Of a DNA stretch of 64,000 nt, positions 22,801 through 45,030 are shown in pieces (within the stretch, counting starts at the first letter, position 1; each line of letters opens with the position of its first letter). The notes beneath the pieces were generated by a model. It saw only the letters and a program-made list of their open reading frames with translations. It was not told the DNA's origin and ran no database searches. Both the position numbers and the translations under genes were made by a program. Source of the stretch: Gammaproteobacteria bacterium (GTDB taxonomy: Bacteria; Pseudomonadota; Gammaproteobacteria; Magnimaribacterales; TMED112); assembly GCA_038147295.1 (NCBI GenBank), contig JAYQTH010000001.1:84770-148769 (forward strand), written 5' to 3'.

Positions 22801-23575
22801 CTTCAAGCATTGACTTTGAAAAGGATTCAATCACCGCTGAATTATCATGATATGCAGACTTAACATGCTTCATTGATTTTTTAGTTGTTGATTTAATGGC
22901 ATCAAACAAGCTATCAAAAGCAAAAGGAATATCAGTCTGCCAATTTGATCGAAATATTTTGTGTCTACAATGTTCAGAGTTAATTTGAGCAAACATCATT
23001 AACTCTGCATCAGTTATTCCCCTTTCAAGTTTTTGAAATAATGAGTTTAGATACTCAATCTCATGCTGGTTGAGAGCTAGACCAAGCTCTGAATTTAGTG
23101 AGATTAATAAATCTTTATTCTTATGGATATCGAAAACATTAGTTTTCTTTCTTTTGCTTTTATTGAATATTGAAGCTGTTTCATCAATATGTTCAAACAA
23201 GGATTCTGTCATGCGGTCAAATAATTTACTTTTGACCATTTTTTTATCTTCTTCAGGAGTAAAAAATGCCTTAAATCTCTCTATTCTTAGTACCCGTTTA
23301 ATGCCAATATTATTAAAAATATCCTGAGCTTTGCTTGACCAAGCACTTATAGTTCCAGCTCTAGGTGTAAAGATCAAATTAGGTTCAAATTTTAGATCCT
23401 CGGCATTTAGTAGGGTTTTTATTTTTTCTATTTCATTAATATCCGGCTGATCATCAAACAGAATGCAAAAGATATATCTAGATTGGAGCTCAATATTTGT
23501 GTTCTTAAAAATTCTTTTAATATCTAGTTCATTGAGAACACTATCCCCTTCGTAAAAAAATATTTTTTGAGCCAT
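19805..23575 (-). CDS. purL: Phosphoribosylformylglycinamidine synthase (large type)
   Basis: [33 protein letters not shown] and MMPHPER motifs. Confidence 0.97.
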
Positions 23576-25577
23576 TATGCTTTGTTAATTAAAATTTTTT
23601 CTTTCAGCTCGTTAACAAGATCTCTGTAGTAAGCCGCTTTTTCAAAATCTAATTCCTTTGCAGATTGTCGCATTAATTTATCTATTTTTTTGATCTCCTT
23701 GCCAATATTCCTGTAATTTATTTCTGAAATATCGTATTCAGCATCAAGATTCTTTTTATTTTTCTTCTCTTTTTTTATTATTCTTGCCCCCTCCATGACA
23801 TCCTTTATTTTTGATGTGACGGTTTTTGGGGTGATGTTATGTTCTTTATTATATTTATTTTGAATTTCTCGCCTTCTATTAGTCTCTCCTATTGCTCTTT
23901 CAATTGAACCAGTAATTTTATCGGCATATAAAATTGCTTTGCCTTCAACATTTCTTGCAGCTCGACCAATTGTTTGAATCAGTGAGCCTTCTGATCTTAA
24001 AAAACCTTCTTTATCAGCATCTAGAACACCAACGAACCCAACTTCTGGAAGGTCCAAGCCCTCCCTAAGCAAGTTAATGCCTATCAATACATCAAAAGCA
24101 CCAAGCCTTAAGTCTCTAAGAATCTCGACCCTCTCGACAGAATCAATATCCGAATGCATGTACCTAACTTTAATACCTTTGTCATGCATGTAATCGGTTA
24201 AATCTTCCGCCATTTTTTTAGTTAGTGTTGTGATTAGACTTCTAAAACCTTTATTTGAAGTTTTTTGAACCTCTTCCAAAATATCTTCAACTTGATGTTG
24301 AGCTGACCGTATTTCAACTTCTGGATCTACCAGCCCTGTTGGTCGAACGAGTAACTCAACTTTTGTATCCGTGTTTTCATTCTCCCACTTGCCTGGTGTT
24401 GCCGAAACAAATACCCTTTGGGGTGCAATCTTATTCCACTCCTCAAACCTTAGAGGTCTATTATCCAATGCACTTGGCAATCTAAAGCCATATTCAACAA
24501 GTGTTTCTTTTCTTGATCTGTCGCCTTTAAACATACCACCTATTTGCGGTACAGAAACATGCGATTCATCTACAAAGACAATCGCGTTTTTTGGGATATA
24601 GTCAAACAAACAAGGTGGTGCTTCACCAGCAGCTCTCCCAGATAAATATCTAGAATAGTTCTCAACTCCATTGCAAAACCCCAGCTCCTGTAGCATCTCT
24701 AAATCGTAATTAGTTCTCTCTTCTAGTCTTTGTGCTTCAAGCAATTTATTATTTGCCTTAAGCTCTTTGAGCCTTAAATGTAGTTCTGATCTTATTTGTT
24801 CGATGGCTTGCTCAATGGTTGCTTTGGGAGTTACATAGTGAGTTTTTGGAAAAATTGTGACTCTTGGCACCTCATATAGCACAGCTCCTGTTAGGGATCA
24901 AAAAAAGATATTTCAGATATTTTATCGCCTTCGAGCTCAATTCTAACCGACTCTTTTTCTGATTCTGCAGGGAAGATATCAATCACGTTACCTCTGACTC
25001 TAAAGTTTGATCTTTGAAAATCTAAATCATTCCTTGAATATTGCATGGTCGATAATTGTCTTAAGATGTCTCTTTGATTTACTACCTCTCCTCTGCTTAA
25101 ATTTAAGATCATCTTCAAATACGATTTTGGATCTCCAAGACCATAAATTGCAGAAACTGAAGCTACGACAATTGTGTCATTTGATTCTATAAGTGCTTTG
25201 GTTGCAGATAGGCGCATCTGCTCAATATGTTCATTAATATTGGCATCCTTGGCAATGTAAGTATCAGAAGATGGAACATAAGCTTCTGGCTGATAATAGT
25301 CATAATAAGAAATAAAATACTCCACTCTATTGTTGGGGAAAAAATCTTTAAATTCACCATAAAGTTGTGCAGCCAAGGTTTTGTTTGGGGCCATAATTAT
25401 TGCAGGCCTTTGTGTCTGTTCAATTACTTTAGCTATGGTATAGGTCTTACCTGATCCTGTTACTCCAAGCAAAATCTGGTTCAACAAACCATCATTTAGG
25501 TTTTTAGATATTGAATTTATTGCATTAGGCTGATCCCCAGTCGGTTTAAAATCAGCAATTACTTTGAAGCCTGACAT
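23575..25577 (-). CDS. uvrB: Excinuclease ABC subunit B; one-base frameshift near 24894-24896 (probable homopolymer error)
   Basis: [29 protein letters not shown]. The halves join as [12 protein letters not shown] if one C is added to GATCCC. Confidence 0.94.
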
Positions 25578-29485: not shown

Positions 29486-29505
29486 TACTGTATATATATA
29501 CAGTA
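29486..29505. promoter_or_regulatory. LexA (SOS) operator upstream of umuDC
   Basis: TACTGTATATATATACAGTA matches the E. coli-type consensus exactly, inside a perfect 30-bp palindrome at 29481-29510. Confidence 0.95.
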
Positions 29506-29509
29506 TTTT

Positions 29510-29914
29510 ATGATAGATCTTGAAAGCAAGACAGAGAATAATTTTCTTCACAAAAAGCAAAAACACTCAGGGTTTCCTAGTCCTGCTGGTGATTATGTAG
29601 AGAATCCAATAAATATTAATGAACTGCTCATAAAAAGAGCTAGCTCGACATTCCTGATGAGATTTAAAGGCCATGAGATGCTGTTTGCTGGTATAAAAGA
29701 TAATGCCATTCTGGTAATTGATAGAAGTATAAAGGCGACCAATGGGAATGTAGTCGTGGCCTCAGTAGATGGAAATTTTATTTGCCGCAAATTGATAATC
29801 AACAATAAAAAAATGCTTACTACTGCCTGTCATAAAAATAGCTACATAGATATAGATCTAATTTTAGATTTTGAGATTTTAGGAGTTGTCACTTCTTCGA
29901 TAAATATTTACTGA
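29510..29914 (+). CDS. umuD: UmuD-like protein (S24 family) with a degenerate catalytic dyad
   Basis: GFPSPAGDY motif, upstream of umuC; GxSM is GHEM and TVKKL is ICRKL. Confidence 0.88.
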   Translation: MIDLESKTENNFLHKKQKHSGFPSPAGDYVENPININELLIKRASSTFLMRFKGHEMLFAGIKDNAILVIDRSIKATNGNVVVASVDGNFICRKLIINNKKMLTTACHKNSYIDIDLILDFEILGVVTSSINIY

Positions 29915-31175
29915 TGTATGCCTTAGTTGATTGCAATAGCTTTTATGCGTCTTGTGAAAAGATATTCCGACCCGACCTAAAAAATAAGCCAGTCATAGTA
30001 TTAAGCAATAACGATGGTTGTGTGATAGCAAGATCACCAGAAGCAAAAAAAATGGGCTTAACTATGGGTCAGCCATGGTATCAGATCAGAGAAGACTATA
30101 TTGGGAGGGGTGGAGTAGTTTTTTCATCTAATTATGACTATATGCTGATATCTCAAATAGAGTAATGAATCTATTGGCAGCATCTTGCCCTGAGATCGAT
30201 ATTTATAGCATTGATGAAGCATTTCTAAATTTACAAACATATGAAAAAAATATTGATCTAATTAGGTTTGCTTTTGAGTCAAAAGAAAAAATTAAAAAAT
30301 GGATTGGCATTCCAGTAAGCATAGGCATTGCTCCCACAAAAACACTGGCAAAGCTTGCCAACAAGATGGCTAAAGACGATGACAGATTTGATGGTGTAGT
30401 TATTCTTCAAGATAAAAAAATAATTCAACATTTTCTAAAGATGGTGGAGATAGAAAAAATATGGGGAATAGGCAAAAGGCTGGCCAAGAGACTGCAGGCA
30501 ATAGGAATAAAAAATGCTTTACAACTTAGTCAGACTGAACCACGCCTAATGAGAGATAACTTTAGTGTTGTTCTGGAAAGAACAATAAGAGAACTAAAAG
30601 GACAGCCATGCTTAGGTGCCAACAATATACTGGAACCAAAAAAACAAATCATGGTTAGCAGAAGTTTTGGGAAATCAATAGATTCAAAAAAAATTATCAA
30701 TGAAGCCATTAGCTTTCATGCTGGAAGAGCAGCAGAAAAACTAAGATTTGAAGATCAGAAATGTAGTTTAATAACAGTTTTTATTAGATCTAATCCTTTT
30801 AATAGAAACATAAAACAAATATATTCTTCAAATTTTATTGAATTGATCCATCCAACGGATGATTCAAGAGTAATCATCAAGTCTGCTAATCAAATATTAG
30901 ATAAAATATATAGAAAGGGCTATAAGTACTCTAAAGCTGGAGTGCTATTAAGCAGTTTCTCAGACAGGCTTGGATATCAAATGAATCTATTTGAAAAATC
31001 ATGCGATAGCAAAAAGTCAGAAAGACTTATGAGTGTTGTCGATTTTCTAAACTTAACAGAAAAAGGCAAGCTCTATTTTGGAAATCAAGGCTATAGAAAT
31101 ACGTGGAAAATGAAAAGGGATATGAAATCAAAAAGGTATACCACGAAGATAGACGAAATACCTATTGCAAAATAA
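29914..31175 (+). CDS. umuC: DNA polymerase V subunit UmuC; one-base frameshift near 30137 (probable sequencing error)
   Basis: MYALVDCNSFYASCE, YSIDEAF, clamp motif QMNLF, C-terminal WKMKR..SKRYTT. The halves join as SSNY(E)LYADISNRVM with one added base. Confidence 0.92.
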
Positions 31176-44415: not shown

Positions 44416-44435
44416 TACTGTATATAATTACAGTA
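44416..44435. promoter_or_regulatory. LexA (SOS) operator, lexA autoregulation
   Basis: TACTGTATATAATTACAGTA (CTGT-N8-ACAG) containing TATAAT at 44423-44428; TTGAAA at 44399-44404 (18-nt spacer). Confidence 0.93.
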
Positions 44436-44436
44436 T

Positions 44437-45030
44437 ATGATAAACCTAACCAATCAACAGATCAAAGTATTTGAAGTAATTAAAGACCATGTTGTCGCGA
44501 ATGGATTCCCGCCAACGCGAGCAGAAATAGCAAAAATTCTAAACTTTAAATCAGTCAATGCTGCTGAGTCGCATATTAAAGCACTAGTGAAAAAAGGAGC
44601 TATTGAAAAGGTGCCGGGTTCTTCTAGAGGCATAAGACTTGTTGAAGAAACAACAGGAATTCCTTTGATAGGGAGAGTTGCCGCAGGGTCTCCAATAACA
44701 GCTATAGAGAATATTGAAAAAACAATTCCAGTAAATCCTTTGAATAAGCTTGTTGATTTCTTCCTACGTGTTGAGGGAGATAGCATGATAAATGCTGGCA
44801 TTCTTGAAAATGACTTGGTCGGTGTAAAACATTCAAAAGTTGCTGAGAACGGGCAAATAGTTGTTGCAAGAATAGATGAGGATGTTACCTTGAAAAGATT
44901 TTATAAAGACAGCAAAGGAGTGAGGCTCGTTGCTGAAAACAGCAACTACAAAGACATTGTAATTAATGAACAGCAGTTTTTTGCCATTGAAGGGCTGGCT
45001 GTTGGAATTGTAAGAGAGAATTTAAATTAG
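44437..45030 (+). CDS. lexA: SOS repressor LexA
   Basis: PPTRAEIA HTH, VAAG cleavage site, GDSM serine and TLKR lysine all intact. Confidence 0.97.
   Translation: MINLTNQQIKVFEVIKDHVVANGFPPTRAEIAKILNFKSVNAAESHIKALVKKGAIEKVPGSSRGIRLVEETTGIPLIGRVAAGSPITAIENIEKTIPVNPLNKLVDFFLRVEGDSMINAGILENDLVGVKHSKVAENGQIVVARIDEDVTLKRFYKDSKGVRLVAENSNYKDIVINEQQFFAIEGLAVGIVRENLN

Follow-up and report, generated by a model that had tools for sequence, protein, structure and literature searches.

According to textbook accounts, SOS mutagenesis cannot proceed until a second lock, the cleavage of UmuD, has been opened, and this step is also presented as a drug target. How is polymerase V (Pol V) controlled when the umuD gene of an SOS operon encodes a protein lacking both the nucleophile and the general base of this reaction? 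The question is raised by a stretch of DNA of 64,000 nucleotides, referred to here as the window. It is part of a 1.12 Mb assembly whose host, to judge from its closest matches (SAR86 MAGs, 96% protein identity), is a SAR86 gammaproteobacterium. The elements relevant to the question are collected in Table 1.

Table 1. Position of the umuDC elements and of lexA in the window.
Feature	Position	Strand	Remarks
LexA (SOS) box CTGTATATATATACAG	29488..29503	.	perfect palindrome, 6 nt before umuD ATG
umuD, 134 aa	29510..29914	+	S24 fold without Ser-Lys dyad; PF00717, NF007621
Basic arm stub H14-K-K-Q-K-H-S20	29549..29569	+	in place of E. coli F18...V22-x-C24; arm comparison
GFPSPA, UmuD' N-terminus	29570..29587	+	invariant in 24/24 g1 copies
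Glu56 (GAG)	29675..29677	+	column of nucleophile Ser60; alignment to PDB UmuD/UmuD'
Arg93 (CGC)	29786..29788	+	column of general base Lys97; alignment to PDB UmuD/UmuD'
umuC, Pol V catalytic subunit	29914..31175	+	relatives encode 420 aa; two ORFs here (83 aa and 336 aa)
One-base loss shifting the umuC frame in this assembly	30137..30139	+	extra base in sequencing runs
UmuC clamp-binding motif QMNLF	30978..30992	+	Q357, L360, F361 invariant in 22/22 g1
UmuC tail SKRYTT	31128..31145	+	SPRYTT in E. coli, SPxYxT in other SAR86
lexA with its own SOS box	44418..45030 (ORF 44437-45030)	+	canonical cleavage site and dyad

A UmuD protein without its catalytic dyad

The umuD product is recognized by the Pfam profile PF00717 (E 1.6e-15) and by the NCBIfam profile NF007621, with 112.3 bits for a cut-off of 110. 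The best Foldseek match of a modelled relative (L004, 96% identical) is UmuD' (1ay9), with an rmsd of 1.6 A. The operon is preceded by a LexA box, a pattern that is matched twice within the window when up to two mismatches are allowed (0.01 match expected by chance), and umuD overlaps umuC at position 29914. Contigs of RNA libraries cover parts of umuDC and are not counted as expression. By ancestry, fold and context the protein is UmuD, sharing with its E. coli counterpart the fold, the GFPSPA N-terminus of UmuD', the LexA box, the overlap with umuC and an HMM score over the cut-off; it lacks the dyad and a cleavable arm.

The alignment to the PDB entries of UmuD and UmuD' places Glu56 and Arg93 in the columns of Ser60 and Lys97, confirming an earlier sequence-only reading in which both dyad residues were said to be replaced. 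The same alignment bears out Ser20 as the P1 residue, directly before Gly21 of GFPSP (position 29570). That reading had also considered a sequencing error unlikely, and the two codons are indeed unchanged in near-identical contigs of four DNA runs. Its further argument, that each replacement takes at least two substitutions, does not hold for Lys to Arg, where one substitution suffices from AAA or AAG; AGA or AGG is the Arg codon in 17 of the 24 copies from the host genus. The intact cleavage set ascribed to LexA is present in full (VAAG, GDSM and TLKR).

Spread of the loss among SAR86 bacteria

Sequences of UmuD were compared between 24 copies of the host genus (g1) and 44 copies of SAR86 families f2-f4, leaving out L049 (an additional, long copy with no umuC), one of the two L071 copies, for which no start was found, and L073. 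Both dyad residues are absent in 24/24 g1 copies. The Ser60 column holds Glu in 19, Asp in four and Gly in one of them, against Ser in all 44 others; the Lys97 column is Arg throughout g1, whereas the other families have Lys in 37 copies and Arg in seven, all seven belonging to genus g12. A protein database search extends this picture: among 120 of 171 matches listed, the 83 g1-type proteins showing both columns are all without Ser and with Arg, the Ser column varying freely between E, D, G and V, and the 32 more distant proteins all combine Ser and Lys. The gene itself is found in 23 of the 29 other genus genomes, which are 60-97% complete; across the order, 215 of the 251 genomes have it. 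On the strength of these alignments, the dyad loss is lineage-wide in genus g1.

In genus g12 (L027, L056-L061), Lys97 is replaced by Arg in seven of seven copies, with Ser60 and the arm anchors retained. A quick UmuC tree with midpoint root puts g1 on one side of a branch with 100% support and nests g12 within family f3, so that the replacement in g12 looks independent of that in g1; UmuD of g12 is a possible intermediate state. Other forms of UmuD were noticed along the way. The UmuD-like second copy L049 (G037:C1:14428-14778) lies in a 304-aa frame with a long N-terminal extension, has neither the Lys nor the Gly of GFPSP, is not followed by umuC and resembles P0129 and P0260. Dyad-intact UmuD of families f2, f3 and f4 (L031, L033, L035-L048 and others) has Val at P1 (V-x-V-G) in 22/44 copies and GWPSP in 17/44.

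Integrity of umuC and selection on the operon

UmuC is the only IMS-family or Y-family match in the genome. The base missing from umuC in the assembly is present, at 30137-30138, in 4/4 DNA runs, from four studies, and in 3/3 RNA-library runs covering the site, a fourth run being without coverage. An unbroken UmuC of 420 aa is encoded in 22 of 23 g1 relatives, the exception being that of G006 (L020:1881-2624), which stops at 248 aa. The frameshift very likely arose during assembly, and with the base restored from the DNA runs umuC is one unbroken frame of about 420 aa. A uvrB-like gene of the window (23575-25577, minus strand) is likewise split, into ORFs of 228 aa and 435 aa, possibly by a single-base assembly error.

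UmuC had been described as keeping its catalytic and clamp motifs, and D6, D101, E102 and Q-x-x-L-F are found in 22/22 g1 sequences. The residues of the RecA-NT region are also invariant in g1 and under purifying selection. The C-terminal UmuD'-binding tail is present with P409 and W415 changed: position 409 is K, Q or R in 22/22 g1 sequences and P in 41/41 other SAR86. The complete set of changes fixed in g1 comprises E96D, T294S, P409K/Q/R and W415I, the original residues being kept by 38-41 of 41 others. No PDB match was found for the UmuC fragment at E 1e-15, and Pol V is presented as structurally unsolved in a section of PMC11791011.

The ratio dN/dS in g1, pooled over 17 unsaturated and non-independent pairs among 22 genomes (Nei-Gojobori), is 0.048 for umuD and 0.054 for umuC; umuD of the other SAR86 families gives 0.025-0.055. 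Within g1 umuD, the value is 0.014 for the seven codons before the Gly, 0.014 for residues 25-45 and 0.13 for the distal arm. These low values, together with synonymous variation at the arm His, Lys and Ser codons, argue that the arm is translated and constrained. The alignment of homologs proposed at the outset has thus yielded a dyad loss that is conserved, in a gene with a dN/dS of about 0.05.

A rebuilt arm before the UmuD' N-terminus

Residue counts indicate that the change in g1 UmuD is concentrated in the cleavage apparatus. Positions conserved in SAR86 are changed in g1 at 14/52 sites of UmuD as compared with 8/133 of UmuC (Fisher p 2e-4), and only 1/13 of those lying in UmuD residues 25-45 is affected; other SAR86 genera have zero to six conserved UmuD positions changed, mostly conservatively. 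The g1 losses include, besides Ser60, the arm anchors P16, F18 and V22 of E. coli UmuD as well as P103, and the N111/Y114/P116 loop is changed. The cleavable-arm pattern P-x-F...V-x-[ACV]-G is absent from g1 UmuD. The arm that stands in its place, 19-20 aa long and basic, has the stub consensus F-x-[HY]-K-[KN]-x-K-[HN]-S, with F/L16, H/Y18, K22 and S24 by E. coli numbering, and its last seven residues bear a charge of +2 or +3, whereas for most of 46 other arms this value is -1 or 0. In AlphaFold2 monomers the arm confidence is low both for dyad-less proteins (43-57) and for a dyad-intact control (55-66).

The contacts to RecA are altered in part. In a passage of the RecA-UmuD cryo-EM study, F18 of the substrate arm makes up part of the pocket that receives RecA F203, and D91 and E93 of UmuD are given as acidic contacts to the RecA basic groove (PMC9926225). 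D91 is retained in only 6/24 g1 copies as against 41/44 other SAR86, while the pocket residues Y52 (as F) and F94 are retained and E93 is kept in 17/24.

SOS regulation in the genus

Control by an ultra-tight operator had been suggested as a special feature of this operon. In every SAR86 locus read, dyad-intact ones included, the box ahead of umuD is perfect or nearly so, and the tight operator is therefore not a compensation for the missing dyad. The recA gene differs in this respect, its box being CTGT-N8-ACAC in 22/22 g1 loci and CTGT-N8-ACAG in 8/8 others (L153, loci L145-L174). A complete loss of the g1 recA box had been considered and was rejected, this weakened site being present; it would place recA before umuDC in the order of induction. 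The g1 RecA protein, with 324-325 aa, is reduced at either end relative to RecA of other families, which has 333-345 aa.

A strong LexA box lies 1 nt ahead of an orphan ORF of 54 aa (L175:791-955, minus strand; G000:C2:841393-841554), an SOS gene of SAR86. The ORF recurs, always with its box, in 14/29 further genomes of the genus and in one f3 genome, and has no Pfam or Atlas match. A few copies end in QKSLF, QKDLF or QMEFSF, which we take to be clamp-motif-like. As a boxed homologue occurs in a dyad-intact family, this ORF was not counted as a g1-specific activator.

Recurrence outside SAR86

The occurrence of such proteins elsewhere was assessed on the 150 best-ranked representatives of clusters at 50% identity, setting aside g1 fragments, proteins of two domains and two in which the motif could not be read. 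The single-domain representatives outside g1 comprise 104 with both residues, nine with neither, five with Ser only and two with Lys only; the ranking query carries Arg, which favours Arg-bearing matches, and two of the nine are related (Balneolaceae). Both arm anchors are retained in 0/9 dyad-less and 61/104 dyad-intact representatives (p 6e-4). In 3/3 Balneola-like metagenome loci, which were found with a Balneola protein and whose taxon is deduced from 54-67% identity, a dyad-less UmuD is encoded one small gene ahead of a full UmuC ending in SKRYTT. In the control set of Pseudomonadota, where 139 genomes match, Ser and Lys are present in all of the 29 best loci. Its dyad-intact members have Pro at the tail position in 22/23 readable UmuC tails, the exception being Ala (L115), and a plasmid UmuC (L079) with an intact UmuD has Gln there. 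A dyad-less Pol V is, from these comparisons, probably recurrent.

The gene between umuD and umuC in the Balneola-like loci (L109-L111) encodes 119-138 aa and is presumably four-helix-bundle-like. UmuC of these loci lacks the Little-finger motif TSPF.

Working mode of the dyad-less UmuD

A UmuD that has lost its dyad and is nevertheless strongly conserved beside an intact polymerase gene suggests that Pol V likely works without the cleavage switch. The sequence-only reading had left the choice between a UmuD active without cleavage and one cut in trans by LexA or a second UmuD, and the former is the better supported. Full-length g1 UmuD is probably a natural mimic of UmuD', conserved and catalytically dead, with Pol V gated by LexA and RecA only. 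DNA damage would cause RecA* to cleave LexA, umuDC would be transcribed, full-length UmuD2 would bind UmuC, and the loading of RecA-ATP through the RecA-NT region would be the sole remaining post-translational step. With the loss of the residues that dock the arm on the globular domain, entry of GFPSPA into the UmuC cleft would be unhindered, with the short basic stub remaining attached. An insertion of GFPSPA into UmuC belongs to the published Pol V model (PMC11791011, in its section 3.4). The stub H-K-K-x-K-H-S may adjoin primer-template DNA or the Palm/Little-finger cleft, and the four UmuC changes fixed in g1 may make room for the chain past Gly21.

The observed basis of this model consists of the dyad loss, without exception in the g1 genomes and in the g1-type proteins among the database matches listed, the remodelled arm, purifying selection, an intact UmuC and the LexA box. 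The concentration of the losses in the cleavage apparatus, the recurrence outside SAR86 and the absence of a second UmuD among the PF00717 matches of 30 genus genomes favour it as well. Engineered E. coli proteins provide a precedent: UmuD-3A (T14A L17A F18A), full-length and non-cleavable, is called a UmuD' mimic in passages of PMC5342242 and PMC3384344, and some UV mutagenesis, at a low level, is still obtained with the non-cleavable UmuD18. Several points speak against the model. The non-cleavable E. coli forms are mostly poor mutators, since in the account given in part of PMC5342242 UV mutagenesis is low but detectable with UmuD18 and greatly reduced with UmuD8 (S60A). In the published model the UmuD' N-terminus lies deep near the active site (PMC11791011, in part), where 20 extra residues could clash. 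The stub, which is as conserved as GFPSPA, and the Ser at P1 in 24/24 copies also resemble a protease site; RecA-pocket residues persist; and the change of the UmuC tail Pro is not exclusive to dyad-less systems, given the Gln and Ala found in L079 and L115.

A wider reading can be put forward more tentatively, as one that is possible and falls short of probable. Several lineages (SAR86 family f1, Balneola-like bacteria and others) would have arrived independently at a pseudoprotease UmuD, a Pol V active uncleaved, a basic stub contacting DNA and matching changes of the UmuC cleft, including the SP to SK tail. The timing that slow cleavage provides in E. coli would have moved to operator strength, through a weakened recA box and a perfect umuDC box, and g12 would be an independent intermediate.

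Trans cleavage of UmuD at Ser20-Gly21 or close to it, which would turn the protein into ordinary UmuD', is unlikely in comparison, whether the enzyme were LexA on the RecA filament or a non-S24 protease recognising the stub. The strong selection on the stub, the constant Ser at P1, the intact GFPSPA and the intact LexA would all fit such a process, and intermolecular cutting is the normal mode of UmuD according to a passage of PMC9926225. A dead substrate with a live partner is moreover a natural arrangement, as tandem proteins exist that pair a dead arm-bearing domain with an intact armless one. Such two-domain UmuD proteins, of 240-285 aa, were seen in P0124, P0126, P0131, P0133, P0139, P0141, P0142, P0144, P0156, P0163, P0165, P0183, P0194, P0211, P0222, P0240, P0249 and P0252; in many of them domain 1 has GFPSPA and lacks one or both dyad residues, and domain 2 is armless with Ser and Lys. 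They are likely single-chain dimers of substrate and enzyme.

The search for a second S24 peptidase returned only LexA as a PF00717 match besides UmuD in this genome, and a second UmuD is absent among the PF00717 matches of 30 genus genomes, two single-contig ones included, which consist of LexA, UmuD and six SodX-like Ser-Lys ORFs. These six ORFs (L192-L197) were rejected as a second UmuD, being about 90-110 aa long with weak TIGR02754 matches below the cut-off, restricted to 6/30 genomes and not found in this genome or in two single-contig relatives. The gene upstream of them is presumably a nickel SOD. Trans cleavage by LexA is weakly disfavoured by residue conservation: P3 is Lys in 24/24 g1 UmuD, as opposed to Val or Ile in 44/44 other SAR86 UmuD, and Val in the 22 g1 LexA read (of 23 loci), which all have V-A-A-G, Ser and Lys. 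An S24 enzyme with Val at P3 of its own site would be a poor fit for Lys, and the docking residue F18 of the substrate arm is lost. The arm motif F-x-H-K-K resembles, as we take it, the L27 site of a Prp-type protease; this family was discarded as the cutter, no match being found over its cut-off.

It is also improbable that uncleaved UmuD mainly stabilises or restrains UmuC, leaving Pol V either weak or weakly mutagenic, as might suit a streamlined genome. Uncleaved UmuD2C has been described as a non-catalytic checkpoint complex, and the non-cleavable E. coli variants are weakly mutable (PMC5342242, in passages). Against a restraining role, the catalytic, clamp and RecA-NT-region residues of UmuC are invariant under purifying selection, GFPSPA, which the mutagenic form needs, is invariant, and the part that was lost is the set of anchors docking the arm of full-length E. 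coli UmuD.

A new self-processing chemistry, such as an N-to-O acyl shift involving Ser20 or attack by Cys107 as nucleophile with the help of an arm His, has very little probability. Ser20 and Cys107 are invariant in 24/24 g1 copies, Cys107 replacing an Asn of 44/44 others, and Ser or Thr precedes the Gly in 4/9 other dyad-less proteins as compared with 3/104 intact ones. The two arm His residues are however not invariant (Y in two and N in three of 24), Cys92 is common to dyad-intact SAR86, and the N111 column is without Cys in other dyad-less lineages. Lys94, which is K in 19, R in four and E in one g1 copy, is not conserved and was rejected as a replacement base.

Decay of the operon, to which a dead UmuD and a umuC split in this assembly and in one relative (L020) might point, is refuted by purifying selection acting alike on both genes, by the unbroken UmuC of the other relatives and of the sequencing runs, and by the presence of umuD in most of the genus genomes, themselves mostly incomplete.

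Relation to known mutasomes

The UmuD' mimic proposed here for g1 is expected to resemble UmuD-3A and UmuD18 of E. coli in its full or partial arm, uncleaved and undocked (PMC5342242, PMC3384344, in passages). These are however laboratory mutants with an intact active site, whereas the g1 state is natural and fixed in the family, where the stub is newly conserved and UmuC has changed too. HumD of phage P1 and gp23 of phiKO2 (NF051876) are, like it, natural UmuD'-like proteins independent of cleavage and controlled by LexA. Complementation of UmuD' is part of the annotation of HumD, and the Ser region of both is partly degenerate. They differ in starting with M-GFPSP, without an arm, in retaining the Lys and in being phage genes without an adjoining umuC. 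The window protein scores 71.3 bits with NF051876, for a cut-off of 120, its gene has no in-frame ATG, GTG or TTG between codons 2 and 21, and its arm of 19-20 aa is under purifying selection.

YqjX/YolD of the Bacillus YqjW-type mutasomes offers another parallel: this small subunit is without proteolytic activity, and models place its N-terminal arm within the polymerase (PMC12926913, PMC6511836, in part). It belongs to a family unrelated by sequence and is modelled as a monomer, whereas the g1 protein is a true UmuD. The Acinetobacter repressor UmuDAb is described as having a DNA-binding domain at its N-terminus (PMC8565304, in part), for which the short g1 arm leaves no room. No description of a SAR86 or pseudoprotease UmuD was found in the literature other than subscription papers and supplements, and a dyad-less UmuD is unmentioned in passages of the computational mutasome and Bacteroidetes SOS literature.

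Significance

The operon of genus g1 is a real, lineage-wide variant of Pol V. If the proposed working mode is true, a cleavage-free Pol V that is natural, conserved and probably recurrent would make the second lock dispensable, and would point to the few changes of the arm and of the polymerase by which UmuD cleavage is bypassed. It makes testable why cleavage activates Pol V, through the freed arm or through the new N-terminus, and structural work on Pol V could find a simpler target in a UmuD2C pair that needs no cleavage. It would also bear on the control of mutagenesis in the UV-exposed, streamlined cells of SAR86.
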